Shown one piece after another: positions 19,073-44,630 of a DNA stretch of 64,000 nucleotides. Below the pieces are notes generated by a model. That model made no database searches, was not told where the DNA came from, and saw only the letters and a program-made list of their open reading frames with translations. The translations under genes and the position numbers were made by a program. This DNA comes from a virus. The stretch is taken from the IMG/VR virus record IMGVR_UViG_3300013830_000222, positions 2,140 through 66,139 of that record. One strand, written 5' to 3'. Numbering within the stretch: position 1 is the stretch's first letter; each line of letters begins with the position of its first letter.

Positions 19073-19073
19073 T

Positions 19074-19403: not shown

Positions 19404-19406
19404 GAG

Positions 19407-23221: not shown

Positions 23222-23225
23222 GAGA

Positions 23226-23730: not shown

Positions 23731-23780
23731 AACTGTTGACAGGTCAACAATTAAGAAGCATAATTGACATATCAACAGTT
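23731..23780. promoter_or_regulatory. paired MarR operator palindromes / promoter
   Basis: TGTTGACAGGTCAACA and TTGACATATCAA. The region is bracketed by AACTGTTGA...TCAACAGTT and contains TTGACA. Confidence 0.75.
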
Positions 23781-23791
23781 AGAGGTGGGAA

Positions 23792-24226: not shown

Positions 24227-24227
24227 A

Positions 24228-24887: not shown

Positions 24888-24889
24888 TT

Positions 24890-25591: not shown

Positions 25592-25684
25592 TGACAATCG
25601 CCATAATTTAAAAATATGATGTTTATGAGGGTCATAGAGATATGGCTCTTTTCTTTTGCCATAAACTGAGGAAGGAGGCGGGCG

Positions 25685-27667: not shown

Positions 27668-29073
27668 AGCTAAAGGGAAGGATGACCATTGAGCTCATGG
27701 ACTCGAATACCGGGGCAGTGGAGACAGTTACAGAGGAAAATATGATCACAGAGGCGGTGAACGACCTCTTTGCCTATAATCCCTTCGGAGTCCATTACAC
27801 GACCGGAAACACGATCAACGAGGTGGAGTGGTACAAGACCATGCTGCCCATCTGTCCGAACCTGATCGGCGGGATTTTATTATTTTCAAAGCCTCTGACG
27901 GAGGATGCAGCGAACATTTACCCACCGACGGACAACCTGCCGGTGGCCTATGCCTCCAACAATGTGAATTCCACGGCGGATGTGGCAAGAGGAAGCCTGA
28001 ACCAGTCAGAGAGTAAGAAACTCGATAACGGCTATAAGTTTGTCTGGGAGTTTACTCCTTCTCAGGGCAACGGGACGATTGCAGCCGCAGCGCTGACCTC
28101 CTGCTGGGGCGGGACGAACGCATTCGGAAGCTCCGCGGGGACCAAGGCGACATTTCAGATGATGAAGAGGGTGAACATCGGGGATGTGGCGGACGCCAGG
28201 AAGCGGATGCTCTTTAACGCCGTCGCTTTTGACTGGGAGAAGGAACTCCTGACCTCGATCACCTATAAGGACTCTGCGGTCGTGATCCGAAAGCTCAGGG
28301 TTCCGACCTTTACCATCGGGCTGAATGAGCAGCTGAACGATTCGACGACCTCAATCCTTGAGGAGAAATCCGTGACGACGACTTCCTTTGTCTGGGGCGA
28401 TGACTACAGCGTCTGGGGAGATTTCTTTGACGGAGGCGACGGCTACTGGTACGGATTCTCTTCAGAGGGAAATTCGTCCGGCAACGCGACGGTCACCTGG
28501 GTGAAGATCAAGAAGGATGATCTCACGATGACGGACGGCTCCTGGACGCTGACAAAGGCATATCTTCACCGGATCGGGACCAGGGATGAGGCGTCGAGCT
28601 ATCCGGAAAGGACCATTTATTCCGTGATGCGGGGCGGCTATCTCTATGTGCTGGCCTACAACAAGAAGGGCATCTACAAGATTAATGCCAACAACCAGAC
28701 GGATGTCACGCTGATCCCGTTCGGATTTACATCTGCCTTAAAGCCGCTCTGCGAGTCCGGAAGCTGCGAGGTTTACATGACGGTTGTGAACGGGCTGATC
28801 ATGGGATGGGATTTCATCCTGGACGCGTCAGATAAGGTGACGAAGGTCGGCGGTGCGGTGCGGCTGGAGGACGCGGCTTCGCCCATTTTCCAGTACAAGA
28901 ATTATCTCGTGCAGTGGGGAGGCTCCTACGGAAATGAGTACCGGACGGTGTACATCCTGACGCCGTATCTGGCTTCCATCAATAATCTTTCTCAGACCGT
29001 GGAAAAGACAGCTGAAAAGACCATGAAGATCACGTACACGCTGACGCAGGAGGCGGAGACATCGGCATCCTGA
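27664..29073 (+). CDS. minor tail protein, probable receptor-binding protein
   Basis: Last tail gene before the holin; YVWEF-like ..GNGTI motif and KTMKITYTL C-terminus. Start reassigned to ATG 27664. Confidence 0.7.
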   Translation: MKLKGRMTIELMDSNTGAVETVTEENMITEAVNDLFAYNPFGVHYTTGNTINEVEWYKTMLPICPNLIGGILLFSKPLTEDAANIYPPTDNLPVAYASNNVNSTADVARGSLNQSESKKLDNGYKFVWEFTPSQGNGTIAAAALTSCWGGTNAFGSSAGTKATFQMMKRVNIGDVADARKRMLFNAVAFDWEKELLTSITYKDSAVVIRKLRVPTFTIGLNEQLNDSTTSILEEKSVTTTSFVWGDDYSVWGDFFDGGDGYWYGFSSEGNSSGNATVTWVKIKKDDLTMTDGSWTLTKAYLHRIGTRDEASSYPERTIYSVMRGGYLYVLAYNKKGIYKINANNQTDVTLIPFGFTSALKPLCESGSCEVYMTVVNGLIMGWDFILDASDKVTKVGGAVRLEDAASPIFQYKNYLVQWGGSYGNEYRTVYILTPYLASINNLSQTVEKTAEKTMKITYTLTQEAETSAS

Positions 29074-29158
29074 CGCGCGATATTATTTTGAACCTGTAAA
29101 TGGGCAGCTCCTTTTGGGGCTGTCTTTTGTTTTGCCTGTAAGGGAGAAGGAGGTAGCG

Positions 29159-29608
29159 ATGAAGGAGTTCTGGAACATTATTCAAGCGGAGTTTGCTGTC
29201 GTCGGAGGATGGCTTGGCTGGTTTCTCGGAGGGGCGGACGGACTTATGTATGCACTGATTCTATTCGTAGTCTGCGACTATATCACGGGCGTGATGTGCG
29301 GGGCGGCAGATCACAAGCTGTCCTCGCAGATCGGCTTCAAGGGGATCTTTCGAAAAATCGTCATTTTCATCATGGTCGGGATCGGCAATGCCATTGATAT
29401 CCATGTGCTGGGAAAGCCGGGTGTCCTGCGAACAGCAGTCATCTTTTTCTACATCTCGAATGAAGGGCTGTCTCTGGTGGAGAACAGCGTGCACCTGGGG
29501 CTGCCGGTGCCGGAGAGCCTGAAGAGAGTACTGGAAGAGCTGCATGACAGAGACGGCAAGGAGAAGGAAGAGGAGAAGGAGATAAAGGATCATGATGAAG
29601 GGAATTGA
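29159..29608 (+). CDS. phage holin (holin 4_1 / toxin-secretion family)
   Basis: DYITGV, GFKGIFRK, NEGLSLVEN...GLPVP. Confidence 0.92.
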   Translation: MKEFWNIIQAEFAVVGGWLGWFLGGADGLMYALILFVVCDYITGVMCGAADHKLSSQIGFKGIFRKIVIFIMVGIGNAIDIHVLGKPGVLRTAVIFFYISNEGLSLVENSVHLGLPVPESLKRVLEELHDRDGKEKEEEKEIKDHDEGN

Positions 29609-30383
29609 TGTTTCGAAGTGGCAGGGGAAGATCGACTGGCAGAGGGTGGAGGCGTCCGGTATCGAGTTCGCCATCATCCGGGCAGGCTACGGGAACTCTG
29701 CAAATCAGAAGGATTCATTCTTCGAGAGGAACTATCTTGGCGCGAAGACGGCGGGGCTGCATGTCGGCGCTTACTGGTACAGCTATGCCAACAGCTTCCG
29801 GGAAGCTACCCTTGAGGCGAAGGCTTTCCAGAGGGTGATCGCCGGGAAGCAGTTCGACATGCCGGTGTACTTTGACATGGAGGAGAAGGATCAGCTGGAG
29901 GCCGGCAGGGATTTTTGCAGCGGACTGATCCGGACCTTCTGCAGTGAAATGGAGAAGGTGGGATACTTCGCCGGCTTTTACACATCGGCATCCTATGCAA
30001 AGGCGGTGGTATCGCCGGAGATCCTCAGCCGGTATACCTTCTGGTGCGCCCAGTGGGCGAAGAGCTGCAGCTATCAGGGGCGCTGCGGAATCTGGCAGTA
30101 TTCCTCCAAGGGCAGGGTGCCGGGGATCAGCGGGAATGTGGATCTGGATCGGTGCTATCAGGACTTTCCGAAGGTGATCCAGAGCGGAGGGTTTAATGGA
30201 TACCCGAAAGGTACCGGAGCAGGAACGACTGCAGCGGCGCCTTCCAGAAAGTCTGTCGAGGAACTGGCCAGAGAGGTCATTGCCGGGAAGTGGGGCAATG
30301 GCAGGGAAAGACAGCAGAGGCTGATTGCTGCCGGGTATGACTATAAGGCCGTACAGAGAAAAGTGAATGAGATGATGAGGTAA
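29592..30383 (+). CDS. endolysin, GH25 muramidase with CW_7 domain
   Basis: GIDVSKWQG, YFDME, WQYSSKG, VDLD; C-terminal LAREVIAGKWGNG.ER. Confidence 0.93.
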   Translation: MMKGIDVSKWQGKIDWQRVEASGIEFAIIRAGYGNSANQKDSFFERNYLGAKTAGLHVGAYWYSYANSFREATLEAKAFQRVIAGKQFDMPVYFDMEEKDQLEAGRDFCSGLIRTFCSEMEKVGYFAGFYTSASYAKAVVSPEILSRYTFWCAQWAKSCSYQGRCGIWQYSSKGRVPGISGNVDLDRCYQDFPKVIQSGGFNGYPKGTGAGTTAAAPSRKSVEELAREVIAGKWGNGRERQQRLIAAGYDYKAVQRKVNEMMR

Positions 30384-30405
30384 CGGAGCGTTGCATCATC
30401 TGGGA

Positions 30406-30455
30406 AGAAGGGCTATTCATGGCGGAGAGATCTGCGGTGGATAGCCCTTATTTTT
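30406..30455 (+). terminator. terminator after the lysis cassette
   Basis: AAGGGCTATTCAT...GTGGATAGCCCTT followed by ATTTTT. Confidence 0.65.
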
Positions 30456-30465
30456 GTGCTCTGAG

Positions 30466-30499
30466 AGCGGAAAAAATCCGACCGGGGGAACTTTAAGGA
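30466..30499 (+). promoter_or_regulatory. bipartite motif copy 3
   Basis: AGCGGAA-AAAATCCGAC-CGGGGGAACTTTAAGGA upstream of the recombinase operon. Confidence 0.75.
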
Positions 30500-30521
30500 G
30501 TAGGAAAACTACAACCTGGAG

Positions 30522-30767
30522 GTGCCTATGACGGTCGATGAAATGAAGAACGTGGACGTGCGGACGGTCAGCCGTGATGATTTGGTAGATATCAGAGACG
30601 TGCATATAGACAGGACTCTTCCGAAGGAGGAGCGTGTCCGGAGCTTTGTGCAGCAGATCCGGAATCCATACTGCTTCAAATGCGGGAATGTTGTCGTGAA
30701 GACCAGATTTACAGATACGGATGTGACGCTTGAGGAGCGCATGGAGCATTATCTCCGGTCAAAATAA
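30522..30767 (+). CDS. small protein preceding serine recombinases (DUF6870-like; possible directionality factor)
   Basis: LVDIRDV.ID..LP.EER...F..QI.NPYCF. Confidence 0.8.
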   Translation: MPMTVDEMKNVDVRTVSRDDLVDIRDVHIDRTLPKEERVRSFVQQIRNPYCFKCGNVVVKTRFTDTDVTLEERMEHYLRSK

Positions 30768-30888
30768 TTGTGGCCGATGAGGCAGCGTATGATCATGGTA
30801 GAATCAGACCATAGCGAATAAGAATCAGGGCTGTACCGGATGCATTTGTTTTTGCTTGGTCAGATGGTGACTAAGGAGGACAAACAGC

Positions 30889-32520
30889 ATGAATAAAGAG
30901 TACAGCGCCTGCATTTATGCCAGACTGTCCCGTGACGACGGAGACAAGCTGGAAAGTGACAGCATTATCAATCAAAGAGCCCTGATCAGGGACTATCTCA
31001 AAAAGCATCCGGAGATCCATATCGTTTCTGAAAAGACTGATGATGGATTCTCCGGAGTCAATTTCGACAGACCAGCCTTCAAGGAGATGATGGATGAGAT
31101 CCGCTCCGGGAAGGTCAATTGTGTTGTCGTCAAGGATCTTTCCCGTTTTGGAAGAAATTATATCGAGGCTGGCAATTATATCGAGAAGGTGTTCCCGTTT
31201 ATGGGAGTGCGCTTCATCGCCATCAATGACAGCTATGACAGCCTGGACAGGAACCAGGCGGATTCTCTGATTATTCCCTTCAAGAATCTGATCAATGATG
31301 CTTACTGCAAGGACATCTCTGTGAAGATCCGCAGCCAGCTCGAGATCAAGAGGAAGAATGGCGAGTACATTGGCGCCTTTGTCGTATACGGCTATCTGAA
31401 GGATCCGGAGAATAAGAACAAGATTATCGTTGATCCCTTTGCGTCTGAGGTGGTCCGGGCGATCTTCAAATGGAAAATCGAGGGCATGAGCCAGAGCAGG
31501 ATTGCGGACAAGCTGAACGCGCAGGGAGTCCTCTGCCCGCTGGAGTATAAGAAGTCGATTGGCGTGAACTTGAAGAGCAGCTTCCAGGTCAGGAAGAAGG
31601 CCATGTGGTCTCCGGTCTCTGTGGAGCGGATCCTGAAAAATGAAATCTATACAGGGGTCCTGCTGCAGGGGAAGAGGAGCACTCCGAACTATAAGGTCAA
31701 GAAGCTGATGCTGAAGGATGAGTCAGAATGGGTGAGAGCGGAGGATACACATGAAGCCATTATCGACCGCGAGACCTTTGAGAATGTCCAGATCATTCTG
31801 AAGCATGATATCCGGATTGCTCCGCAGGAGGATATGGTCTACCCGCTTTCGGGCTATGTGCGGTGCGGCGATTGCAGACAGAGCATGGTCCGCAAGTCCT
31901 TTGTACATGGAAAGAAGCGCTACAGCTATTTCGTCTGCTCGACACATAAGCGCGGCAAGGGCTGCTCTACACATTCCATTGGCGTGGAAGAGCTGACAGC
32001 AGCAGTTCTCACTGCGACCAGAAGGCATGTGGACACCATCCTTGAGATGGCAAAAACGATTGATTATGTTGAGGCGATTCCTGAGCGTCAGAGAGGCGTC
32101 CTTAATTATGACGCGCAGATCGTCAGGCTTAAGGAGGATATTGAGAAAAACGAGACGTTCAAGCTGAAGCTTTATGAGAACCTGCAGGAGGGTATGATCA
32201 GCCAGGATGAGTATTTTCTCTTCAAGAAAAGCTATGCAGAGAAGATCAAGAAGGCGCAGCAGTCCATAAAGCTCCTGCAGGAGGACCGGGAGCAGATGGT
32301 AAGCAGCAGCCGGGAGAGGCTTTCCTGGATGGATGTCTTTAAGAAGCATGCAAATCTCACGGAGCTGGAGCGAACAGCGGTCGTCGATATGATCGAGTGC
32401 ATCTATGTCTATGAGGACCAGCGAATCGAGGTCGTTTTCAGATACGCAGATGAATGCGAGAAAATCATCAAATTTCTGCAGAATGTTCCTGAAGACGTAA
32501 AAGCCCGGGCAGCAGTGTAA
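30889..32520 (+). CDS. large serine recombinase 1
   Basis: YARLSRDD, DDGFSG..FDRP, KDLSRFGR, C-terminal zinc ribbon and coiled coil. Confidence 0.95.
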   Translation: MNKEYSACIYARLSRDDGDKLESDSIINQRALIRDYLKKHPEIHIVSEKTDDGFSGVNFDRPAFKEMMDEIRSGKVNCVVVKDLSRFGRNYIEAGNYIEKVFPFMGVRFIAINDSYDSLDRNQADSLIIPFKNLINDAYCKDISVKIRSQLEIKRKNGEYIGAFVVYGYLKDPENKNKIIVDPFASEVVRAIFKWKIEGMSQSRIADKLNAQGVLCPLEYKKSIGVNLKSSFQVRKKAMWSPVSVERILKNEIYTGVLLQGKRSTPNYKVKKLMLKDESEWVRAEDTHEAIIDRETFENVQIILKHDIRIAPQEDMVYPLSGYVRCGDCRQSMVRKSFVHGKKRYSYFVCSTHKRGKGCSTHSIGVEELTAAVLTATRRHVDTILEMAKTIDYVEAIPERQRGVLNYDAQIVRLKEDIEKNETFKLKLYENLQEGMISQDEYFLFKKSYAEKIKKAQQSIKLLQEDREQMVSSSRERLSWMDVFKKHANLTELERTAVVDMIECIYVYEDQRIEVVFRYADECEKIIKFLQNVPEDVKARAAV

Positions 32521-32531
32521 GGAGGTGCGCT

Positions 32532-34241
32532 ATGGCAAGAAAGAGCAGAAGGTCTGTAGCCACTGTTGCTGCAGAGAAGAATGATGCCGCTGTCGTTTAT
32601 TATCCGACGGCGATCTATGCCAGGCTTTCTATTGAGAATAGCGGCAAGGACGATGAGGGAGATTCTATCGCAAACCAGATCAGCTTTTGCAGAGATTACC
32701 TGAAGAACGCAAGTGATCTGAGGCTATACGATATTTATGAGGACAACGGCCAGAAGGGAACCCGGTTCGACCGACCGGAATTTCAGCGCCTGATGGATGA
32801 TGTCAGAGCCGGGAAGGTGAAGTGCATTGTAGTCAAGGACCTGTCCCGATTCGGAAGAAATTATCTTGAGGCGGGAGAGTACCTGGAGAAGATTTTTCCC
32901 TTTATGGGAGTCAGATTCATTTCCATCACGGATGGCTACGACAGTCTTCTGTCTAGTGACGCAGAGGGTGCCCTGATGATCCCACTGAAAAACATGATCA
33001 ACGATGTGTACGCCAAGGACATCTCCAGGAAGATCATTACTTCCTTCCGGGCAAGGCAGGAGAAGGGAGAATTCCTCCCGGCCTTCGCTCCGTATGGTTA
33101 CATGAAGTCACAGACACAGCAATATCGCTATGAGCCTGATCCGGTGACGGCTCCGTATGTAAAGCTGATCTTCGAATGGAAGGCAGCAGGCGTCAGCCAC
33201 AGTGAAATCTGTAATCGGCTCAATGACATGGGAGCCATTACGCCTGCCAGACGGAAGGTCGAGCTGGGAATCTGGAAGGCTGAGAAATACAAGCATACGA
33301 TCTGGCACGGCAGAAGCATATTGGATATCCTGCAGAATCCGACCTATACGGGAGCCATTGTCTATGGAAGGATGCCGAAGTCTCTGTATCAGGGGATCAA
33401 GATCCATAGAGGGAAGCCCGAGGAGCTGAGAATCCTCCCGGAGATGCATGAACCGCTTGTAAGCCAAGAACTTTTTGATCAGGTCCAGGCTATTTTTGCG
33501 GAGACGAAGAAGAATGCCAACAGGAAGATGGAGCAGACTGCAGACGTCAGAAGAAGGATCATAAATCTCTTCAAGGGAAAGATCTACTGTGGCGACTGCG
33601 GAAAACGAATGCGGTTTATCAAAGGACAGGGAAAGGATAAGCAATATACCTTCATCTCCTACGCCTGCGGCGGGGATATCGATACCGGGTACCGAAATTG
33701 CAGCAGGCACCACATCAAATATGGAGATGTTTGCGACACTGCACTATCTGTCATCAGGGAGCAGCTGGAGCATGCTCTGAATCAGGAGGAAATGCTTCGT
33801 CGACTGAAGGGAACAAGAAGCGAGCGGAATCTTCTGGACCAGTATAACGGCGATTACAATCATGCGCTTCGGGAGGTTCAGAAGGTGAATGCCCGGCGTG
33901 AAGGACTGTACGAAAGCTTTACGGAAGGCGTTCTTGATGCCGATGAATACAGATACGCCAAGGCTGAATATGAGAGGAAGGCAGAAGAGCTGCAGAAAAA
34001 GCTCGACGCCGCGAAGAAGAAAAGGGATCAGCTGGAGCAGATTCTCTCAGGGAACAGCAACTGGCTTGAGGCTCTTCACAGAGCAGAGAATGCCAGTGAG
34101 CTCGATCAGAGTCTGGTGGACGATCTGATCAGCAGAGTTCTTGTTTATGAGGATGAACGGGTGGAAATCGAGCTGAATTATTCTGATGAAAAGAATGCCT
34201 TTGAAGCCGTTCTGGCAAAACTCTTGAAGGAGGCGGATTGA
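32532..34241 (+). CDS. large serine recombinase 2
   Basis: YARLSIEN, KDLSRFGR, CGDCG. Confidence 0.95.
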   Translation: MARKSRRSVATVAAEKNDAAVVYYPTAIYARLSIENSGKDDEGDSIANQISFCRDYLKNASDLRLYDIYEDNGQKGTRFDRPEFQRLMDDVRAGKVKCIVVKDLSRFGRNYLEAGEYLEKIFPFMGVRFISITDGYDSLLSSDAEGALMIPLKNMINDVYAKDISRKIITSFRARQEKGEFLPAFAPYGYMKSQTQQYRYEPDPVTAPYVKLIFEWKAAGVSHSEICNRLNDMGAITPARRKVELGIWKAEKYKHTIWHGRSILDILQNPTYTGAIVYGRMPKSLYQGIKIHRGKPEELRILPEMHEPLVSQELFDQVQAIFAETKKNANRKMEQTADVRRRIINLFKGKIYCGDCGKRMRFIKGQGKDKQYTFISYACGGDIDTGYRNCSRHHIKYGDVCDTALSVIREQLEHALNQEEMLRRLKGTRSERNLLDQYNGDYNHALREVQKVNARREGLYESFTEGVLDADEYRYAKAEYERKAEELQKKLDAAKKKRDQLEQILSGNSNWLEALHRAENASELDQSLVDDLISRVLVYEDERVEIELNYSDEKNAFEAVLAKLLKEAD

Positions 34242-34242
34242 T

Positions 34243-35859
34243 ATGCGGGAAACTGTGATTGGAAAGTACATTCGCCTCTCTCAGGCTGATCGGGATCTGA
34301 TGAAGAAGAAAAGCAAGACGGAGAGCGAGAGCATTTCTCATCAGAGAGCCTTAATCCAGAACTATATCGAATCTGATCCGGAGCTGAAGGGCTGCCGGCA
34401 GGAGGAATTCTTCGATGACGGGTACAGCGGGACGAATTTTGACAGGCCATCCTTTGAGAGGCTGCTGCAGAAGATCCGCTCTGGCGAGATCAATTGTGTC
34501 ATCGTCAAGGACTTCTCCCGCTTTGGAAGAGATTATATCGAGCTGGGAGATTATCTGGAGAGGATCTTTCCCTTCCTGGGCGTGAGGTTCATTTCTGTCA
34601 ACGATCATTACGACAGCAACGATTACAAGGGTACGACTGGCGGACTGGATGTCGTCATGAAGAACATCGTTTATGACTACTACAGCAAGGACCTGTCCAT
34701 GAAGGTAAAAACAGCCAAGCGATCGAAGATGAAGCGCGGTGAGTACATGGGCGGACACATTCCCTACGGGATCATGAAGGATCCAGACAGGAAGAACAGC
34801 CTGATACCGGATCCGGAGGCGGCGGAGATCGTGAAGGAGATCTTCGGATATGCATTGAAGAAAATGAAGCAGAAGGATATTGTGGATACGCTGAATCAAA
34901 AGGGCTATGAGACTCCGGGAGCCTATTACCGCAGGAAGCATCCGGGATCGAAGAAATTTGCAAACGCTTCAGCTCTCAGCTGTTGGACGATGGACAATGT
35001 CCGAAATATTCTTCAGCAGGAAATGTATTACGGCGCTGTGGTCCAGCACAAGCGAGAAGGCATCGGCATTGGCTGTAAGCATACAAGAGCGATCCCGAAG
35101 GAGGAGCAGCTGATCGTTGAAGGCATGTTTGAGCCGATTGTCAGCAAGGAAACCTTCCTGGATGCTCAGAAGATTTTTCGAAGAGTAACAGGCAGGAAGA
35201 CGGCAGTGCCGTACGTGTATCCTCTGAAGAGTCATGTCAAGTGCGCCGTCTGCGGAAGGCGGCTGCAGTACAGATCGAATGAGATCAAAGGCGTCTATTA
35301 CAATTATTTCTGGTGCCCGCTGTCGAAATACCAGAATGGATCCCAGTGCTTTCCGGGCTATTACAGAGAGGATGACCTGAATAGGATTGTTCTGGAAGGA
35401 ATTCAGAAGCTTCAAGATCTGGCGGGACAGGCAGCGATGAAAACCTCCAGGAGTAAGGCCAATGCTGCAGATGAGAGACTGTCGAAGGCTCGCACGCTGA
35501 GTGACCTGCAGAAGGCACTGGAGCGGTGTGAGAACGATAAGTTTGCCAACGTAGACGCCATGATGTCGGGAGACATCAGCAAGGATCAATATCAGGAGCG
35601 CAGGAAGCTTCTGAATGATCAGGAGGAAGCACTGAAGAAACAGATTGCCGAAGCACAGAAGCGGGATTTTGATCCCAGGATGGAGCAGAGCGAGGAGGCA
35701 GCAGGTGTGATAGAAAAGCTCAGATCCTTCGATGGAGCGCAGGAGCTCACGCCGGAGATGGTGGGTGCACTGGTAAAGGAGGTGCGGGTCACGGATCCGG
35801 AGCACATCGAGATCCGGTGGAACTTCTCGGAAATGGTGATGGAATTCCTTACTGAATGA
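34243..35859 (+). CDS. large serine recombinase 3
   Basis: YIRLSQAD, DDGYSGTNFDRP, KDFSRFGR, CAVCG. Confidence 0.95.
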   Translation: MRETVIGKYIRLSQADRDLMKKKSKTESESISHQRALIQNYIESDPELKGCRQEEFFDDGYSGTNFDRPSFERLLQKIRSGEINCVIVKDFSRFGRDYIELGDYLERIFPFLGVRFISVNDHYDSNDYKGTTGGLDVVMKNIVYDYYSKDLSMKVKTAKRSKMKRGEYMGGHIPYGIMKDPDRKNSLIPDPEAAEIVKEIFGYALKKMKQKDIVDTLNQKGYETPGAYYRRKHPGSKKFANASALSCWTMDNVRNILQQEMYYGAVVQHKREGIGIGCKHTRAIPKEEQLIVEGMFEPIVSKETFLDAQKIFRRVTGRKTAVPYVYPLKSHVKCAVCGRRLQYRSNEIKGVYYNYFWCPLSKYQNGSQCFPGYYREDDLNRIVLEGIQKLQDLAGQAAMKTSRSKANAADERLSKARTLSDLQKALERCENDKFANVDAMMSGDISKDQYQERRKLLNDQEEALKKQIAEAQKRDFDPRMEQSEEAAGVIEKLRSFDGAQELTPEMVGALVKEVRVTDPEHIEIRWNFSEMVMEFLTE

Positions 35860-35870
35860 TGACAAAAATG

Positions 35871-35915
35871 AAAAGACCGGCTATTGCTTTCGGCAAGCAG
35901 TAGCCGGTCTTTTTT
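35871..35915. terminator. bidirectional intrinsic terminator
   Basis: AAAAGACCGGCTATTGCTT-TCGGC-AAGCAGTAGCCGGTCTTTTTT between convergent genes. Confidence 0.85.
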
Positions 35916-35918
35916 CGG

Positions 35919-36125
35919 CTAAGCAGCTTTGTATACGTCATTGTCATCCTCCCGTGCATATGACTCATTTGGATGAGTGACCTTGAGAGCGTAGACCGCT
36001 ACTCCAGAGCAGAAAAATGCAATGGCTGTGATTGCTGCCGGCCAACCTTCGAGACTGACATTGAGCTGAGTGTTTTTAATGAGGGTAGGGATGGTATCGA
36101 CTATCTGAGTGAGTTTGTTTTCCAT
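35919..36125 (-). CDS. small membrane protein divergent from the WYL gene
   Basis: 68 aa, AAAGGAGG RBS, one hydrophobic helix. Confidence 0.7.
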   Translation of the reverse strand: MENKLTQIVDTIPTLIKNTQLNVSLEGWPAAITAIAFFCSGVAVYALKVTHPNESYAREDDNDVYKAA

Positions 36126-36320
36126 GCTGGAAACCTCCTTTGTGGTGTTTGTCGTTTGTGCGGTACACTTTTTATGCTCTTATTGTAATTCTGGAAAAAT
36201 TAAATAGATAGAATCAGATTTAAAAATTTCACGACCCCTTAAATTTCAATAAATTACGTGATATATTAGAAAAAAGCAATTGTTTTGCGACCCCAAAACG
36301 GGGCTGTAGGAGACGCCACA

Positions 36321-37340
36321 TTGGAAAAGATAAATGTTTATGTACCGGAAAATATAGGGGCAATGCTTGAAAACGATGCCATGATGTTCGAGGTCTATAA
36401 AAAAGATGGCAGGACTGTTAATAGAAACAAATTCCTTGGCATGCTTATTAACGGGTATTATGCGGATTATGTGACGGAGGCAAGAACGGCATATGATAGG
36501 ATCCTTTCGACGATAAATACAGATAAGCTTAGTCCCAAAGAAAAAGAACATATTGCAAATAATATACTGAAGGCAGTTGTGCTTCCAGTTGTTCCATCAC
36601 GTAAAGGGAAGAATCCAACAAAGCTTTCAGTGAAACCTACTAAGGATACGGAAGCATTGATTGAACAGATTCTTTTGAATCTTGGCGGAGATGATTATAT
36701 TTCACAGTATTTCTGCCGCATGTTCATGAGCTATTGTGAAAAGCCTTTCAGTAAGAGAGAACAGATTGTATTTAAGAGTACTTTTGTAGAATTGCAACTA
36801 GCATGTGATGCTAAGAGAAGCATTACCTTTAAGACAATATGGAATACAAAAAAAATCCACGAAGTGATTCCATATAGAGTTGTGACCGGAACAGAAGAGA
36901 TGTTTAATTATCTCCTCTGCGCAGAACTAAACGAAACAACTGGAAATCAGGAAGCAAAAACATATCGATTGAATCGTATTGACAAGTTGAACTATGGGAG
37001 GAGCATGGCCTCAATTGACAATACTGTGCGAACACACTTGGATATGATGGTTCAGTATGGTCCACAGTATATGATTAATGATGAGGAAGAAACTTGTGTA
37101 AGGCTTACAGCTTCAGGACAGAGAAATTTCAGCCGAATATATTATGGCAGACCTGTGCTTGATAGAGTTGAAGAAAGAGAAGACGGACACTATTACTATT
37201 TTAAGGGTTCTAAAGATCAGGTATTTTTCTACTTCAGACGCTTTGGATATGATGATGCTGAAATTATTACGCCGGAGTCACTCAGAACAAAGATGATAGA
37301 ATTTCATTCGCGTGCTTGTGAAATGTACAAGAGGAAGTAA
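36321..37340 (+). CDS. WYL-domain protein (WYL1 / Cas13d-accessory-like architecture)
   Basis: IPYRVV...MFNYLLC, YRLNRI, LT..G...F..IYYGRP, YFRRFG.DAEII.PESLR. TTG start with AGGAG RBS. Confidence 0.85.
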   Translation: MEKINVYVPENIGAMLENDAMMFEVYKKDGRTVNRNKFLGMLINGYYADYVTEARTAYDRILSTINTDKLSPKEKEHIANNILKAVVLPVVPSRKGKNPTKLSVKPTKDTEALIEQILLNLGGDDYISQYFCRMFMSYCEKPFSKREQIVFKSTFVELQLACDAKRSITFKTIWNTKKIHEVIPYRVVTGTEEMFNYLLCAELNETTGNQEAKTYRLNRIDKLNYGRSMASIDNTVRTHLDMMVQYGPQYMINDEEETCVRLTASGQRNFSRIYYGRPVLDRVEEREDGHYYYFKGSKDQVFFYFRRFGYDDAEIITPESLRTKMIEFHSRACEMYKRK

Positions 37341-37352
37341 AGGGTTATTACT

Positions 37353-39113
37353 ATGGATAATTCGAAAATTTATGAAGAAATAATGTTGAATGGATGCTTT
37401 AATAAAATGAAGTCCATACGCAATGCCTGGAGCGACAATAAGAAGGAGAGTGTGTATGGCCTGCCATCTATTATTGACATAGGTGGATCCGATTATAGAT
37501 CCTATTCTTTCATTATGAAACAGTGCGAATCACTCATATATGAAATGATTCCATATTTAGTGATTGAACTAATGAGAGCATATAATATAACAGCTCAGTT
37601 TTACAAAATAAATCAGAACGATGCTCATATATATTCTGTGTCTGAAAATAAAAATTGGCCTGATTATGTTGAGCAGTCTAATAGAAAACAGGTATTTGCT
37701 TTTAGCTGCAAAGGTGATCAGAAGGAAGGACTGTATATTTTTAAGGAGTTTGGAATTGGAAATCATATCCCGAAGAGTCTTCTTGAAACAATTAAGAAGG
37801 AAAATGGTTTAAAACTTCACTGCTATGTTTCGATAGTTGAAAATGATGCATATTCTGAAGTAATTAATCACAATGACGATGAAAATGATCCGACCAGAGG
37901 AACTGGCATATACTCACTCAAGCAATTTTTCGATTTCTTTTTTGGGCCAGAAGAATATGCAGTGTTTAAAAAGTTCGCAGATATTTTCGCGGAGAAGGTT
38001 CGTGATTATTTTGGGTTTGAGATAGTCAGGACAATAAAACCTAATACATTGCATAATTTCAGAAGTGTAGTTAGAGATGATATAGCTTCCTTCGATGTAA
38101 CAGAGCTTGATTCAGATTCAAGAATCTCTGATAGTCAACGAAACCTAATTGAAGAGCAGTTCTTCAAAGAGAAAAATTACGAGATTCTAACTGGATCAAG
38201 TGATTTTGCGCAAAGCTATATGACAGCGGAATGGCTTTATAAATCGTTATCCGGTGCGGGTAAAATTGATTTGACTGCTATTGCAATGGGATATTTCAAG
38301 GCTATAGAACAGCTCCTGTTCCATTACCTTGAACTTCACACCATAGAAAAGGATGGGGTAACCCGCACGGTTTTTGTTGGTCGAGGCAAACCTTATGCTG
38401 ATCCAAGGGGAAACGCGGATCTGACTGATGCACTCATAAGTGATGAAGAAAAAACAAAAGATATAAATCTGGGATCTCTTACGGGCATGTTTGGCTATTA
38501 CGATGGAAGAAGAGGCCAATACTATTGGAGAAACCGAGATTTGCTGGTTAGTGGAATTGATAATGATACCTATGAGTTCATAATAGACACTTTTACCGGC
38601 ATAGTTGGTCTGCGAAATGGTTTCTTCCACAAACATAATCTCACAGATTGGTCGAAAGTAGTTGATGCCAGGAATAGTGCACGGCTGATATTCTATTTGC
38701 TGCTTGGAGCATACAAAATAAATGAAAGCGATAAAACAGCGCTCGGACTGATTCAAGTGGATGAGCATGATGACTATTATAAATTATGTGATTACATGAA
38801 TGAAAAAGCCTATGGAATTAGCGGACTTGATATTCCAATTTTCTATTTAAACGGACAAACGGATCCATATGGATTCTGGATGGGGTATCGTGACGACTAC
38901 ATAGAATATGACAATTACGGTGAACCTGTGTACTCTGGCGTATACTTCAGGGAATTACATGATAAGCAGCACATCAGAAAGGCTACGAGGGAAAATTTAC
39001 CTACAGAAATATGGGAAGGAACAATGAGTATAAGCAGGAGCGTTCCGATTGAAATCAAACCTTCCGGACCTCAGAAGAAGATTTATCAAGATGGAAAATT
39101 TGTTGGCGAATGA
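37353..39113 (+). CDS. putative HEPN-domain protein
   Basis: 586 aa, low GC. GYFKAIEQLL helix and LRNGFFH (RxxxxH, nt 38613-38630). Confidence 0.6.
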   Translation: MDNSKIYEEIMLNGCFNKMKSIRNAWSDNKKESVYGLPSIIDIGGSDYRSYSFIMKQCESLIYEMIPYLVIELMRAYNITAQFYKINQNDAHIYSVSENKNWPDYVEQSNRKQVFAFSCKGDQKEGLYIFKEFGIGNHIPKSLLETIKKENGLKLHCYVSIVENDAYSEVINHNDDENDPTRGTGIYSLKQFFDFFFGPEEYAVFKKFADIFAEKVRDYFGFEIVRTIKPNTLHNFRSVVRDDIASFDVTELDSDSRISDSQRNLIEEQFFKEKNYEILTGSSDFAQSYMTAEWLYKSLSGAGKIDLTAIAMGYFKAIEQLLFHYLELHTIEKDGVTRTVFVGRGKPYADPRGNADLTDALISDEEKTKDINLGSLTGMFGYYDGRRGQYYWRNRDLLVSGIDNDTYEFIIDTFTGIVGLRNGFFHKHNLTDWSKVVDARNSARLIFYLLLGAYKINESDKTALGLIQVDEHDDYYKLCDYMNEKAYGISGLDIPIFYLNGQTDPYGFWMGYRDDYIEYDNYGEPVYSGVYFRELHDKQHIRKATRENLPTEIWEGTMSISRSVPIEIKPSGPQKKIYQDGKFVGE

Positions 39114-39148
39114 TATCCAGCCACCAAAAATGTGGCGGAGAATATGTG

Positions 39149-39189
39149 TTGACCTATCTTGACACAAGCTGATGAATGCCACCGGTCGA
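39149..39189. other. probable attR junction of prophage 1
   Basis: Non-hsdR sequence TTGACCTATCTTGACACAAGCT is joined to hsdR codons GATGAATGCCAC (DECH). Imperfect arms TTGACC / GGTCGA. GC content shifts here. Confidence 0.55.
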
Positions 39190-40979
39190 TCTACAATGTG
39201 TGGTCGCAGGTGCTGGAATACTTTGATGCTTTCATTATCGGCCTGACCGCCACACCAGAGAAGAGGACATTTGCGTTCTTTAACCAGAATGTGGTCAGCG
39301 AATACTCCCGGGAGAAAGCAATCATTGACCGGGTTAATGTCGGCGAGGACATCTATCTGATCAATACCGAAATCACCCAGAATGGTGCTATGATCATGAA
39401 ACGTCTGGCAGAATACCGGGATCGTCTGACCCGGGCAAAGCGCTGGCGGCAGATGGATGAAGATATGGCCTATAATCCGGGAATGCTGGATGTGGACGTT
39501 GTGAATCCGAGCCAGATCCGTGCTGTCATCCAGACATACCGGGACAAGGTATTTACGGAGCTGTTCCCGCGAAGAAAGAATGTGCCGAAGACACTGATCT
39601 TTGCCAAAAATGACAGCCATGCCGATGATATTGTTCAGATCGTCAGAGAAGTGTTCGGTGAGGGAAATGAATTCTGCCAGAAGATTACTTGCAAGGCAAA
39701 GAAGGCAGACGAGGCTCTGAGCAATTTCCGCAATCAGTTTTATCCTCGCATTGCAGTGACGGTCGAAATGATCGCTACCGGAACGGACGTGAAACCTCTG
39801 GAGTGTCTGATCTTTATGCGTGATGTCCGGAGCAAAGGCCACTACGAGCAGATGCTCGGTCGCGGAACCAGAGTGCTGAAGCTGGAAGACCTGAAGATGG
39901 TTTCCGGTGATGACGCTACAGAGAAAGATCACTTTGTCGTAATCGATGCGGTCGGCGTAACAAAATCCAAGAAGACGGAAACAAGGCCACTGGAGTATAA
40001 GCCCCATGTAAGTCTGACAGAGCTTATGAAACGGGCATCGCTCGGAACAAAAGATCCGGAGATTCTTACATCACTGGCAAATCGTCTAATCCGGCTGAGC
40101 ACAAAACTGAAACCAGAAGAACTTGACGAGTTTGAAGCAAAAGTCGGAAAGCCGATCAGTACTGTTGCAGAAGACCTGCTTAACGCATTCGATGAGGATG
40201 TAGTTGCCGCGAGAGCCGGAGTTGAGCTTGACCCGGACAGAGATCCAAGCCCGGAAGAACAGGTGAAACTTGACGCTGCTCAGGAGGAGCTGATCAAAGA
40301 AGCAGAACAGCCTTTCAACGATCCGGACAACCGGGATTATATTGAAGACGTCCGGAAGAAGCACGAGCAGATCATCGACAATGTAAACATCGACTCCGTA
40401 ACTTATGCTGGGTGGGACAAAGACCGTGACAGCAACGCTGATCAGGTGATCAAGAGCTTTCATGAATTTATCGAAGAGAACAAGGATGAGATTCTTGCGC
40501 TGCGGATTATTTACGATCAGAGATTCGCAGACCGCCCGATGGCGATTCGGAAGCTGAAGGAGCTGTATGAAAAGCTTCAGCAGGAGCATATCACCATTGA
40601 ACGGCTCTGGGATTGCTATGCCATTAAGAAGCCTGACAAAGTGAAGCGTGGCACGATCGGACAGCTGGCGGATCTGATTTCCATCATTCGTTTCGAGATG
40701 GGCTATGCAGACAACCTGCAGCCGTTTGCCGACAAGGTAAACTATAACTTCATGCAGTGGACGCTGAAACGGAACGCCGGTGCTGTGCATTTCACAGACG
40801 AACAGATGGAGTGGCTGCGTTTGGTGAAGGATCACATTGCTGCGAGCCTGAGCATCAGCGCGGACGATCTGGATTATACGCCATTTGACCGGAAGGGTGG
40901 GCTCGGCAGATTTTATGAAGTGTTCGGTGATCAGTATCTGGAGATACTTGATGAGATGAATATAGAATTGGTGGCGTAA
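39159..40979 (+). pseudogene. hsdR: type I restriction subunit HsdR, 3' part only
   Basis: Begins at DECHRSIY, then GLTATP, KTLIFA, TGTDVK, QMLGRGTR and an EcoEI-type C-terminus. Nuclease domain and Walker A are absent. Confidence 0.9.
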
Positions 40980-40983
40980 GGGT

Positions 40984-42105
40984 ATGGAAAAAAGAAAATG
41001 GGCTGATGTTTTACACATTGTAAGTGGAAAAAATCAGAAAGATGTCCAGAATCCGAATGGAAAATATCCCATATATGGCAGTGGTGGGAAGATGGGCTAT
41101 GCAGATGAATACCTGTGTGAGCCAGGTACCACTATTGTAGGAAGAAAAGGTACGATAAATCGCCCCATCTATGTAGATGAGCCATTCTGGAATATCGACA
41201 CCGCTTTTGGCGTAACACCGGATGGGGGCTTGGATTCAAAGTATCTATTCTACTTCTGTGTACATTTTAATTTTATGCCGCTCGACAAGTCTACAGGAAG
41301 ACCGAGTTTAGCTAAAAGCGATCTCCTTAAAATAGAGATGCCGGTACCGTCAATAGATGAGCAGCGCCGGATCGTCTACCGAATAGAGGAACTGTTTTCT
41401 GAACTGGACAACAGCGTAAGCACATTGCAGAAGACAAAGGAACAGCTGGCGGTTTATCGGCAGGCAAGTATTACATCTGCATACCCGGTGATGACGAAAG
41501 AAAACACGAAGAAGCTTTCGGAAATTTCGGATATAACAGGTGGGATCACTAAAGGAAGAGATCTTAAACAAGCAGAGACTATCTTTCTTCCTTATCTTCG
41601 TGTGGCGAATGTTCAAAACGGCTTTCTGGATCTGACGGAGATAAAAGAGATAGAGCTAAAAGCCGATGAGAAGGAGAAGTACCTACTGAAAAAGGGAGAT
41701 GTTCTTTATACAGAAGGCGGGGACAGAGATAAACTGGGACGTGGAACCGTATGGAACGAGGAAATCCCCGACTGTGTCCATCAAAACCATGTATTCAGAG
41801 CGAGAGTAGATAAGAGTATTGCAATACCAGAATATGTCGCTTACTGGTCAATGGGCAGTTATGCCCGCATGTATTTCTTTAGAAAAGGAAAACAGACGGT
41901 AAATCTTGCGTCGATCAATAAAACAGTTCTTTCAAATTTGGAGTTGCCAATCCCCGATTTAGCGACACAGGAGAAAGTTCTTGCCGAGATCGAATCCCGC
42001 CTCTCCGTCTGCGATTCCATCGAACACACCGTGGACACCGCACTCCAGCAGGCGGAAGCGATGCGTCAGTCCATTCTGAAACAGGCATTCGAAGGGAGAT
42101 TATAA
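40984..42105 (+). CDS. hsdS: type I restriction-modification specificity subunit
   Basis: Two TRDs separated by conserved P.P..EQ.RI..IEELFS helices. Ends SILKQAFEGRL. Confidence 0.93.
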   Translation: MEKRKWADVLHIVSGKNQKDVQNPNGKYPIYGSGGKMGYADEYLCEPGTTIVGRKGTINRPIYVDEPFWNIDTAFGVTPDGGLDSKYLFYFCVHFNFMPLDKSTGRPSLAKSDLLKIEMPVPSIDEQRRIVYRIEELFSELDNSVSTLQKTKEQLAVYRQASITSAYPVMTKENTKKLSEISDITGGITKGRDLKQAETIFLPYLRVANVQNGFLDLTEIKEIELKADEKEKYLLKKGDVLYTEGGDRDKLGRGTVWNEEIPDCVHQNHVFRARVDKSIAIPEYVAYWSMGSYARMYFFRKGKQTVNLASINKTVLSNLELPIPDLATQEKVLAEIESRLSVCDSIEHTVDTALQQAEAMRQSILKQAFEGRL

Positions 42106-42108
42106 ATC

Positions 42109-43614
42109 ATGGCCGAATTATCGACACAAACCAGTTCTATCGTATCAAAGGTCTGGGGCCTTTGTAATCCTCTTCGGGATGACGGTGTTTCTTACGGGGA
42201 TTATCTGGAGCAGCTGACCTACCTCATTTTCCTGAAGATGGCAGATGAATATTCCAAACCGCCCTATAACCGTGACAGCGGGATTCCTGCCGGATGCACG
42301 TGGCAGGATATGCGTTCGCTCAAGGGAACGGAGCTGGAGGATAAATACAAAACCATTCTGGAGACCCTCGGAAAGCAGAGTGGCCTTCTCGGCAGCATCT
42401 TTTTCCAGTCATCCAACAAGATCAGCAAGGCTGCTATCCTAAAGCGTGTCGTTGATATGATAGACGGCGAGAAATGGGTGTCCATGTCCTCGGATGTGAA
42501 GGGTGACATCTATGAGGGCCTTCTTCAGAAGAACGCGGAAGATACCAAGAGCGGTGCCGGGCAGTATTTCACACCGCGATCACTGATCCGGACGATGGTG
42601 CGCTGTATGCGTCCGGAACCGGGGAAGACTATCGCAGATCCCTGCTGCGGCAGCGGCGGTTTTTTCCTTGCCTCACAGGATTTCATCGCAAATGAATACA
42701 GGGAGACACTTGACCGGGAGCAGAAGGAGTTCCTGAAGAATAAGACTTTCTACGGAACGGAACTGGTTCCGACCACCTTTAAGCTCTGCTTGATGAACCT
42801 ATACCTTCACAATATCGGAGATATCTACGGCGATGTGCCGGTCAAGCAGGCGGATGCATTGCTGACAGATCCCGGGTATCGTGTGGACTATGTGCTCACG
42901 AATCCGCCCTTTGGAAAAAAGTCCTCAATTACCTTTACGAATGAAGAAGGGGAGACCGAGGACGAGGATCTTGTTTATAACCGCTCTGAGTTCTGGACGA
43001 CCAGCTCTAATAAGCAGCTGAACTTTGTGCAGCATATTTACACGATCCTGAATTCTACCGGAAAGGCAGCAGTTGTCGTGCCGGATAACGTGCTCTTTGA
43101 AGGCGGTGCAGGGGAAACGGTGAGGGAGCAGCTTCTACAGAACACAGATCTGCATACGATCCTGCGTCTGCCTACTGGCATCTTTTATAAGCAGGGTGTT
43201 AAGGCGAATGTGATCTTCTTCGACAAGCGGCCCGCCAGCCCGGAACGTCAGACGAGGGAAGTCTGGATCTATGATTTCCGGACAAACATTCATTTCACAT
43301 TGAAACAGAATCCGATGAAGGAAAGTGATCTCGACGATTTTGTCGCCTGCTTCAATCCTGAGAACCGACACCAGAGGAAGGAAACCTGGTCGGAAGAGAA
43401 TCCTGACGGCAGATGGAGAAGGTTCACTGTTGATGAGATCTGGAAGCGGGACAAGAAGAGTCTGGATATTTTCTGGGTGAAGGACAAGAGTCTCGCGGAT
43501 CTTGATAACCTTCCGGAGCCGGATGTGCTGGCGGAGGATATCATTGAAAATCTGCAGAGTGCGCTGGAAGGATTCCAAGCGCTGCAGGCGAAGTTGAGTA
43601 AGAAAAGCCAATAA
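42109..43614 (+). CDS. hsdM: type I restriction-modification N6-adenine methyltransferase
   Basis: GQYFTPR, DPCCGSGGF, TNPPF, LRLPTGIFY. Confidence 0.95.
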   Translation: MAELSTQTSSIVSKVWGLCNPLRDDGVSYGDYLEQLTYLIFLKMADEYSKPPYNRDSGIPAGCTWQDMRSLKGTELEDKYKTILETLGKQSGLLGSIFFQSSNKISKAAILKRVVDMIDGEKWVSMSSDVKGDIYEGLLQKNAEDTKSGAGQYFTPRSLIRTMVRCMRPEPGKTIADPCCGSGGFFLASQDFIANEYRETLDREQKEFLKNKTFYGTELVPTTFKLCLMNLYLHNIGDIYGDVPVKQADALLTDPGYRVDYVLTNPPFGKKSSITFTNEEGETEDEDLVYNRSEFWTTSSNKQLNFVQHIYTILNSTGKAAVVVPDNVLFEGGAGETVREQLLQNTDLHTILRLPTGIFYKQGVKANVIFFDKRPASPERQTREVWIYDFRTNIHFTLKQNPMKESDLDDFVACFNPENRHQRKETWSEENPDGRWRRFTVDEIWKRDKKSLDIFWVKDKSLADLDNLPEPDVLAEDIIENLQSALEGFQALQAKLSKKSQ

Positions 43615-43625: not shown

Positions 43626-44630
43626 ATGAGTAATCAAGTACCAGAGACTGAAGAAAAAAGAGTCTGGGGCATCCATACGAAAGACGACAATCTTTTCTTG
43701 AAAGAAAATGTCATTGCATTAGGGTGGCAGCAGATTGGTGATCTGAGCCTCATAGTTCCCGACAGAGAGTCATTCAAAGAAAAATACATAGCGGCTTATC
43801 CGGATGCAAAGAAGGGCTCGATTCCCACCGGTGTCGGTATGCTGTTCCGGTTTTGCCATGAGGTGCAGATCGGAGATTACATTATCTATCCTTCAAAGAT
43901 TGATCGCATGATCAATATCGGCGAGGTTACCGGCGGCTACAAGTATGTTCCGGAAGCGAATGAATATGTACAGCAGCGGAGTGTCAAGTGGCTGAAGCAT
44001 GTACCGCGCATGTCTTTCTCACAGGGGGCTCTGTACGAGATTGGCTCGGCTATGTCTTTCTTCATGGTGAAAAATTATGCCGATGAATTCTTGGCGGCTC
44101 TCGATAAGGGCTTTGCCAAGAGCATATCTGAAGGTGAAGAGGATGACACGGTTGGTGCCACGGCAGACGACATTATAGAAAGCACCAAGGATTTTATTCT
44201 GAAGGAGCTGAGCCGTCAATTAAAAGGTTATGATCTGGAACAATTTGTCGCGGATCTTTTACAGGCGATGGGCTACCGGACAACTGTGTCTCCGCATGGT
44301 GGTGATAGCGGTATCGATATCACTGCTTATAAAGATGAGCTGCCGCCGAGAATTCTGGTACAGGTGAAAAGCCAGGACAGCGATATCAAGGAAACAACTA
44401 TTCAGTCTTTAAAGGGCGCAATGCGCGAGGGTGATTATGGCCTGTTCGTCACGCTGTCAAACTATACCAAGAAGGCGCAGAAGTATCTGGAGAACACACC
44501 GATTATCCGAGGCATCAACGGAACAGAGCTGGTGGATCTGATCCTGAAATACTATGATGATCTGAGCGAAAAGTACCGGAAGATGATCCCTCTGAAGATG
44601 GTCTATATTCCGGTTCCGAAAGAGGAGTGA
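43626..44630 (+). CDS. Mrr-like restriction endonuclease
   Basis: LEQFVADLL.AMGY, GGDSGID, VQVK, GLFVT, INGTELVDL. Confidence 0.88.
   Translation: MSNQVPETEEKRVWGIHTKDDNLFLKENVIALGWQQIGDLSLIVPDRESFKEKYIAAYPDAKKGSIPTGVGMLFRFCHEVQIGDYIIYPSKIDRMINIGEVTGGYKYVPEANEYVQQRSVKWLKHVPRMSFSQGALYEIGSAMSFFMVKNYADEFLAALDKGFAKSISEGEEDDTVGATADDIIESTKDFILKELSRQLKGYDLEQFVADLLQAMGYRTTVSPHGGDSGIDITAYKDELPPRILVQVKSQDSDIKETTIQSLKGAMREGDYGLFVTLSNYTKKAQKYLENTPIIRGINGTELVDLILKYYDDLSEKYRKMIPLKMVYIPVPKEE

Follow-up and report, generated by a model that had tools for sequence, protein, structure and literature searches.

The stretch of DNA analysed here, referred to as the window, comprises 64,000 nucleotides of the IMG/VR virus record IMGVR_UViG_3300013830_000222 (positions 2,140 to 66,139) and contains the point at which the right end of a putative prophage meets a truncated hsdR gene of a Type I restriction-modification (R-M) system. 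To the left of this junction the genes follow each other in the order replication genes, terminase, portal, protease, major head, tail, tape measure, tail proteins, endolysin, a triplet of large serine recombinases (LSRs) and cargo. To its right, hsdR is followed by hsdS, hsdM and mrr, with spacings of 4–12 nt (Table 1). Window positions 824–63943 correspond to contig C11 of a draft genome (95 contigs, 3.27 Mb, 91% complete); the window as a whole is a concatenate, positions 1–823 and 63944–64000 coming from other contigs of the same draft. Features that span the joins at 823/824 or 63943/63944, such as the open reading frame (ORF) 798–2438, have artefactual ends. Contig C11 starts (window 824) within the phage DNA polymerase gene; it therefore begins inside the prophage and the left junction lies outside the window.

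The prophage end and the hsdR breakpoint

Searches against PHROGs matched replication proteins (the DNA polymerase truncated where the contig starts, an annealing protein, an exonuclease, a primase-helicase and a helicase) as well as the small and large terminase subunits, portal, protease, major head, major tail, tape measure and tail proteins and endolysin. Judged by these genes, the DNA that interrupts hsdR is the predicted right end of a siphovirus-like prophage. All three recombinase ORFs contain the LSR domains PF00239, PF07508 and PF13408 above the cut-offs, and in the third recombinase, the one nearest to the junction, residues R11, S13 and D16, with an R-x-S-Q stretch, are invariant in all ten aligned sequences. 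The recombinases (30889–35859) and hsdR are all on the plus strand, and the cargo that separates them measures 3.3 kb.

The hsdR ORF (39159–40979, plus strand) encodes 606 aa and matches the Pfam profile ResIII only at positions 132–163 of 164, followed by Helicase_C and EcoEI_R_C. Since the ResIII match is confined to the end of the profile, the ORF starts at helicase motif II, and it is best described as a putative EcoEI-type HsdR lacking its N-terminal part; the full set expected of a complete protein of this type (nuclease, Walker A, DExH, Helicase_C and EcoEI_R_C) is not present in the window copy. Searches with the truncated protein against 61 genomes (G000 and 60 relatives) gave matches with E ≤1e-50 in four, G000 itself among them, and full-length HsdR homologues measure ~800–930 aa. 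In G008, which belongs to the same genus, hsdR lies on two short contigs, shares 98% aa identity with the window copy and extends ~320 codons further upstream, and G036 contains an open hsdR frame of 929 codons (69% identity).

At window positions 39159–39182 the sequence reads TTG ACA CAA GCT and then GAT GAA TGC CAC, the codons for DECH. The preliminary description of this DNA had proposed that hsdR starts abruptly at these codons behind sequence foreign to the gene, and comparison with the relatives bears this out. Nucleotide homology to the intact G008 copy sets in precisely at window position 39171 (C11:38348), which is the first base of GAT GAA TGC CAC, and upstream of DECH the relatives have CCG CCG GAA TTC TTC GAT TGC ATT ATC GTC (PPEFFDCIIV), to which the window sequence is unrelated. 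A TGA at 39150–39152 shuts the hsdR frame six codons before DECH. The rest of the system is undamaged, as had been claimed: the remaining hsdR frame (606 codons) contains no stops, and HsdS and HsdM are free of internal stops and covered by their profiles over the full length, HsdM residues 7–499 aligning to positions 2–480 of 487 of the PADLOC profile MTase_I; mrr is intact as well.

The 23 nt to the left of 39171 (hereafter the P arm) are absent from intact hsdR and conserved in related elements (see below); together with the crossover dinucleotide they form the attR present in the window (39148–39172). Imperfect arms TTGACC and GGTCGA, thought earlier to be centred near 39169, do exist (39149–39154 and 39184–39189) and are not true symmetry partners, GGTCGA being ordinary hsdR coding sequence. 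The true partner of the P arm is the phage P' arm, which lies outside the window, and the supposed centre is 2–3 nt off the GA at which crossover probably took place.

The other side of the split was sought in the 95-contig assembly. A tblastn search with the N-terminal part of the G008 protein for the hsdR 5' half (319 codons) gave at best a match to a different helicase (E 2.9e-4), blastn (word size 7) returned nothing beyond matches of 19–40 nt, and five long HsdR homologues used as tblastn queries matched the 3' part alone. The P' arm was likewise not found in the assembly. Nor is the left end of the prophage identifiable there, since tblastx searches with the left-end genes of related elements (SymE/AbrB-like, ParA, ParB) gave just ParA-like matches of 35–38% identity on contigs C8, C32 and C90. 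The missing 5' half is a gap of the draft (unassembled or unbinned) and, as such, no evidence of deletion. In related elements the left ends (L022 after ~7690; L147 after attL) encode a SymE/AbrB-like protein of 111 aa, a ParA of 258 aa and a ParB of ~325 aa; a partition module is an uncommon find at the end of a prophage and could be a sign of an episomal phase.

Table 1. Positions of the features at and around the junction in the window.
Feature	Position	Strand	Evidence or remarks
Visible part of the putative prophage, 38.3 kb	824..39170	+	PHROGs; homologue in G066; left end off the contig
LSR 1 (internal), 543 aa	30889..32520	+	Resolvase, Recombinase, Zn_ribbon_recom; 70% aa identity to first recombinase of the G066 prophage
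LSR 2 (middle), 569 aa	32532..34241	+	three LSR domains; DUF4368 E 8e-4, below curated cut-off
LSR 3 (external, nearest to the junction), 538 aa	34243..35859	+	three LSR domains
Small ORF in cargo slot	35973..36188	+	
WYL-domain protein in cargo slot	36285..37340	+	PADLOC WYL, E 1.7e-10
586-aa protein without family, in cargo slot	37353..39113	+	Pfam, PADLOC
Short inverted repeat GCCAC...GTGGC upstream of the P arm	39120..39136	+	GCCAT..ATGGC in relatives
P arm, phage-derived half of attR	39148..39170	+	19/23 positions match the 31-junction consensus TTAGACCTATCTTGACAYAMGCT
Inferred crossover GA, first two bases of the DECH Asp codon	39171..39172	+	junction comparison, attP centre
hsdR 3' part, D320 to end (motif II onward, Helicase_C, EcoEI_R_C)	39171..40979	+	Pfam, comparison with intact relatives
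hsdS, intact, 373 aa	40984..42105	+	two Methylase_S stretches; PADLOC Specificity_I, end-to-end cover
hsdM, intact, 501 aa	42109..43614	+	N6_Mtase and HsdM_N; PADLOC MTase_I, E 3.8e-191
Mrr-type nuclease gene	43626..44630	+	Mrr_cat; PADLOC PDC-S02, E 5.9e-140

Junctions, attachment sites and targets of related elements

Relatives of the third recombinase were collected from viral contigs (29 loci) and species-representative genomes (80 loci), and the DNA downstream of each was compared. The phage arm stands directly before GAY GAR NNN CAY, the codons of DExH, in the window and in 30 other loci; these 31 junctions form the alignment used below. The 30 belong to the 54 loci with ≥37% identity in the third recombinase. 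In the others the junction is severed by the contig end (L051), the site is uninterrupted and represents attP (L022), the sequence extends for ≤1.7 kb downstream and is not assessable (19 loci), or ≥4.4 kb downstream is available and junction-free (L052, L068 and L075). Among the 55 loci with ≤36% identity no such junction was found, and a junction-like match in L112 is probably due to chance. In L093, L117 and L119 (≤36%) a similar arm is followed by AAY GAR (N-E-K...), which represents another specificity. More generally, an arm like TTGACACAAG... in L071, L074, L076, L093, L117 and L119 (33–36% identity) abuts N-E-K-Y... or D-E-G-I-T-G-T-S..., which suggests that the specificity of related integrases has moved to different conserved motifs of proteins.

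Serine recombinases cut with a 2-bp stagger. The base before GA is phage-derived in every junction, and the base after it (T or C) varies with the target, also where the phage arms are nearly identical; with a 2-bp stagger this places the crossover at GA 39171–39172. The same dinucleotide is central to the uninterrupted site in the viral contig L022, where GA stands between the phage arm and a second arm, the two being imperfect reverse complements (TTAGACCTAT at −23..−14 and ATAGGTCTAA at +14..+23 around GA). This relative has a short attP with an imperfect dyad around a central dinucleotide, the layout to be expected for a serine integrase.

An in-frame ATG is supplied by the phage arm in 20 of the 31 junctions and lies 13 codons upstream in 17 of them, in which the leader M-[AS]-[ED]-K-x-[FV]-R-P-[IM]-L-T-Y-[AS] is fused to D-E-x-H. 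The ATG sits within the conserved inverted repeat GCCAT..ATGGC, and the window copy is out of frame with hsdR. This codon might drive synthesis of truncated target proteins, for instance an N-terminally truncated, dominant-negative fragment, or might be a mere by-product of the binding site.

Five genomes holding such loci were searched with the ResIII profile for both halves of the split gene, which were found together, on one contig and in one orientation, in three of them: G066, G068 (a Clostridium niameyense record) and G070, at distances of 56, 79 and 90 kb, respectively. The 5' halves, which include the codons for Walker A and for a nuclease motif of the PLD type, end at ResIII profile positions 133–134, and the 3' halves start at ~128–132. 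The former end in ...FDCIIM-DE, ...EYIII-DE and ...DYIII-DD, each followed by the P' arm and a stop within 7–11 codons, and so provide the attL partners of the corresponding attR sites. In a separate search with this profile, which covered the L049 and L063 genomes, the best candidate for a 5' half (G062:C8:173755) proved to be UvrB and was rejected. For G066, the one genome of the three in which the gene content of the interval was established, the 56 kb are a homologous prophage with the triplet at its right end; its proteins are 72% (DNA polymerase), 72% (TerL), 75% (portal) and 61% (major head) identical to those of the window, and its recombinases 70, 61 and 54%.

Fragments of the attL type can also be recognized at the protein level. 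From 120 matches listed for the 319-aa N-terminal HsdR query, 18 proteins of 316–347 aa were taken, of which five EcoEI-type HsdR N-terminal fragments end in FFDCII[VI]D and a phage-encoded tail (E/D)Y(D/G)IIGL...AA, and one further fragment has a variant tail. These are the predicted products of attL sites within hsdR genes of EcoEI type from other metagenomes. DExH junctions like that of the window are found in isolate genomes, e.g. of Faecalicatena contorta and Oribacterium sp.

Logan contigs from four sequencing runs (X1–X4) were compared with the window over positions 36500–41500 (runs X15–X20, with shares <0.25, and those with a share of zero were left out). X1, the probable source run, contributed only one contig (28.6 kb), which has the identical junction without a single difference over 5 kb. 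Its assembly is independent, the data behind it are not; no alternative form was seen in this run. An 8.3-kb contig of X3 is identical to window 36500–39175 and then continues with codons D-E-A-Q-R-V-P-Q, while contigs of X2 and X4 differ at three positions over 37347–39185 and continue with D-E-C-H-R-A-I-S-L-T. As the same phage end, with 0–3 mismatches, and its cargo enter other genes, the element must end at 39170–39175, and cargo and phage arm move as one unit. Other contigs of X3 and X4 continue to the left of 39171 as ...GATTGCATTATCGTC and ...CCGCCGGAATTCTTCGATTGCATTATTGTC, that is, as intact hsdR with an empty site.

Near-identical phage ends are accordingly present in at least three targets (hsdR, the DECHRAIS... 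gene and the DEAQRV... gene), and the wider clade, at 37–59% identity, occupies many; for comparison, Durrant et al. (2022) call recombinases multi-targeting when one cluster at 90% identity occurs in more than three target clusters at 50% identity. On the target side the 31 junctions are conserved solely at the D-E-x-H-[H/R] codons, with continuations such as DECHRS, DEAHRL, DEFHHA, DECHHA, DEAHHS, DEAHRV and DEAQRV. Helicase or restriction Pfam domains were detected in 13 of the 17 target 3' fragments that could be scanned, in addition to the window. They comprise HsdR with EcoEI_R_C (L020, L063), HsdR with T1R_D3-like and EcoR124_C domains (L025), Helicase_C with DUF3427 (L039, L053, L067, L072) and ResIII or Helicase_C only (L029, L032, L038, L049, L054, L065). 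The remaining fragments have an MscS-channel domain behind DEAQ (L060), no Pfam match (L047, L061) or a sub-threshold PLDc_2 match only (L050). The DEAQ/MscS target indicates that DNA sequence rather than gene function is recognized. The bacterial left arms (from three attL sites, three intact genes and two loose ends) all have codons for F-D/E-x-I-I-[VIM] ahead of DE, and the site therefore corresponds to the DNA that encodes the entire motif II strand in enzymes of the ResIII type.

Probable integration at the DECH codons and competing explanations

Large serine recombinases join attP and attB conservatively at a 2-bp core, and excision requires a directionality factor. Taken together, the 31 conserved arms, the attP of a relative, the three attL/attR pairs and the cargo-bearing end in other targets argue for a temperate siphovirus-like phage that integrated into hsdR at its DECH codons by means of the recombinase triplet, a reading to which we assign a probability of about 0.88. 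By analogy with its relative in G066, the phage probably measures ~55 kb, of which 38 kb are visible. Integration would be site-specific and conservative and be carried out by one or more of the three recombinases. The attP, in relatives an imperfect palindrome of ~48 bp centred on GA, would recombine with an attB consisting of the coding motif for the strand plus DExH of motif II (peptide F-D/E-x-I-I-[VIM]-D-E-x-H-[HR]), the cut being made at the GA of the Asp codon. Since such an attB is a coding motif and not one gene, the lineage could land in many ResIII-type helicase-nuclease genes, including those for Type I HsdR of either kind, for PLD-helicase-DUF3427 enzymes and for further ResIII helicases. 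In hsdR, insertion would separate the half with nuclease and Walker A (319 codons) from motif II onward, and for this reason HsdR is predicted to be non-functional. Restriction should thus be abolished and methylation by HsdM and HsdS kept.

Several points weigh against this reading. The attL of the window, the hsdR 5' half and the P' arm are all absent from the 91%-complete assembly, so that the split is seen from one side. Neither attB nor attP forms were found in the source run, from which one contig is available, and contigs hide rare forms. L052, L068 and L075 have no junction motif within 4.4–10 kb despite their related recombinases. As regards the targets, the 13 of 17 is a raw count, L060 (and probably X3 as well) has its DEAQ in an MscS-channel-domain protein and not in a helicase, and two targets have no Pfam match and another one a sub-threshold PLDc_2 match alone. 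Finally, in the accessible part of the survey by Durrant et al. (2022; PMC10083194), LSR targets overall are not enriched in or near defence genes.

Among the alternatives, a regulated switch (active lysogeny), in which non-lytic excision restores HsdR and reintegration silences restriction, comes closest, and we consider it unlikely. Excision would reconstitute hsdR precisely, serine recombination being conservative; its 3' part of 606 codons shows no damage, and intact hsdR alleles are present in other samples. In addition, switch-like prophages are raised as a possibility for the targets of integrative and conjugative elements (ICEs) in the part of PMC4701971 available. However, no excision products were detected in the source run (contigs only), no recombination directionality factor was identified, and the same phage is found in unrelated DExH genes, within a clade that has dozens of targets. 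A generic landing site fits this breadth of targets better than a one-gene circuit does.

It is still less probable that a small integrative cassette, made up of the triplet and its cargo, lies beside a phage without the whole prophage being the integrated unit. Triplet and cargo are indeed at the extreme end, the cargo differs among close relatives (L018 diverges after 35826) and the left ends of related elements carry ParA/ParB-like genes. In G066, however, the 56 kb between the gene halves contain a complete set of homologous phage genes with the triplet at its end, and tail and lysis genes are found directly upstream of the triplet in many viral loci (L019, L028–L030, L033, L040, L042 and L045, by blastn to window 28000–29580).

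An unrelated deletion or rearrangement could also have truncated hsdR, the real att site lying elsewhere, e.g. near 35860, a position that the preliminary description had named as one that would speak against its proposal. No hsdR 5' half was found among the 95 contigs and homology to the closest viral relative ends at 35826, but the 23 nt to the left of 39171 are the conserved phage arm that stands beside DExH codons in 30 other loci, and a contig from another sample is identical over 36500–39175 and then enters a different gene. The junction is at 39171, which contradicts a site near 35860, and we regard such an event as very improbable. An assembly chimera at a motif common to two members of the metagenome, to which the fragmented draft (95 contigs) and the position of the junction in a conserved motif might point, is hardly credible, because the shared junction sequence amounts to merely ~5–15 nt, the X1 Logan assembly has the identical junction and junctions of this type recur in isolate genomes.

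Integration at the DECH codons being thus preferred, the target is most likely a portable, conserved and dispensable landing site whose use also disables a defence gene, rather than a regulated switch; the loss of restriction may or may not be selected. The earlier idea that targeting the restriction gene is an anti-defence strategy is plausible and needs widening: hsdR is one of many DExH targets. A tentative extension, which we hold to be possible rather than probable, is that attP has been shaped to copy motif II, so that it knocks out the restriction or defence helicase-nuclease of any host and combines anti-defence with a landing site portable across Bacillota families.

Cargo, neighbouring genes and biological meaning

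The cargo slot (35973–39113) occupies most of the ~3.3 kb between triplet and hsdR, and all its genes are co-oriented with both (plus strand). A WYL-HEPN cassette had been proposed here; the WYL protein is confirmed by PADLOC (E 1.7e-10), and the HEPN assignment found no support, since the 586-aa protein matched no Pfam or PADLOC family and has no relative in the viral contigs. The closest relative, L018, is 93.5% identical at the nucleotide level over 29592–35826 and then has different sequence in the slot, the length of which, from triplet to attR, ranges from 104 to 6155 nt among relatives (e.g. L047, L062, L072, L044, L033). From these comparisons the slot looks like a cargo hot spot.

In INPHARED nothing matches window 25000–39170, and the left part has only short matches of 60–80% identity, to phages of Lachnospiraceae, Dorea, Agathobacter and Coprococcus. 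The block of exonuclease, annealing protein and DNA polymerase genes (window 824–5000) is on the minus strand and is co-oriented with the structural genes in the G066:C6 prophage, which could be due to either module shuffling or inversion; the window primase-helicase (5209–7503) has no counterpart in the G066 prophage.

No terminator-like site was found on the plus strand between 38263 and 40322, and the sole promoter-like match ahead of hsdS is weak. The hsdS and hsdM genes may be transcribed by read-through from the cargo operon, and the lysogen is inferred to be restriction-minus and methylation-plus. A second prophage-like region (45795–63943) begins ~1.2 kb after mrr, so that the island of truncated hsdR, hsdS, hsdM and mrr (~6.6 kb) is sandwiched by two prophages. 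This region encodes a Y-family polymerase (46350–47810, minus strand), a pair of ImmA/IrrE peptidase and helix-turn-helix repressor (47810–48783, minus strand), an AAA_24 protein, a complete ResIII helicase (52900–54480), a PriCT_2/AAA_25 primase, a SAM synthetase (58414–59490) and a ParB-methyltransferase (60600–61952).

Serine-recombinase elements that split genes include the A118-type phages in comK, SPbeta in spsM and skin in sigK, and their precise excision can restore the gene. The sigK/skin case also figures in the abstract of PMC5025042. These elements have one dedicated target each and developmental or infection-linked excision, whereas the target here is a motif family. The triplets of streptococcal ICEs disrupt hsdM, mutT and traG; they run in the direction of the target, from which coding sequences (CDSs) sometimes separate them (Ambroset et al. 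2016; PMC4701971). As far as the accessible text of that paper goes, the likeness to the window extends to three tandem LSR genes at the element end, the co-oriented target, the optional CDSs between them, a very short junction duplication and, for hsdM, a Type I R-M gene as target. It is a likeness of gene layout: the carrier here is a tailed phage and not a conjugative element, and in place of one gene per triplet lineage the sites are hsdR and the DExH codons of many helicase genes.

Multi-targeting LSRs, according to the sections of Durrant et al. (2022; PMC10083194) at hand, are related recombinases with several target clusters that share a sequence motif, and DUF4368 is common among them. 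The varied targets with a common motif are alike here, and the middle recombinase has a weak DUF4368 match; their worked example has an AT-rich motif and a TT core, as opposed to the helicase-coding signature and GA core described above. Streptococcal integrative and mobilizable elements inserted in SNF2 helicase genes (PMC13089153, seen in excerpt) are similar in that a serine recombinase element occupies a helicase-family gene, and differ in being small mobilizable elements with a single recombinase. A full-text literature search revealed no phage or integrase that uses DExH/motif II codons or hsdR as attB, although the supplements of PMC10083194 and PMC4701971 may list one; PMC11318856 and PMC12934698, in the portions available, are not relevant to DExH integration.

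For annotation, a 'truncated DEAD/DEAH helicase' beside serine recombinases in gut Bacillota may be an attL or attR half. The element would also provide a natural integrase whose ~30 bp target motif (FDxIIxDExH) could be dissected experimentally. Its attachment site would be set by a universal protein motif and not by a single gene, which would explain how one lineage can lysogenise several Bacillota families, with insertion loci that vary among strains. Prophage integration would thereby be tied directly to the loss of restriction or defence, in contrast to the large survey, in the available part of which serine-integrase targets are not associated with defence genes (PMC10083194). Lysogens of this kind, lacking restriction and retaining methylation, could be opened to further gene transfer.

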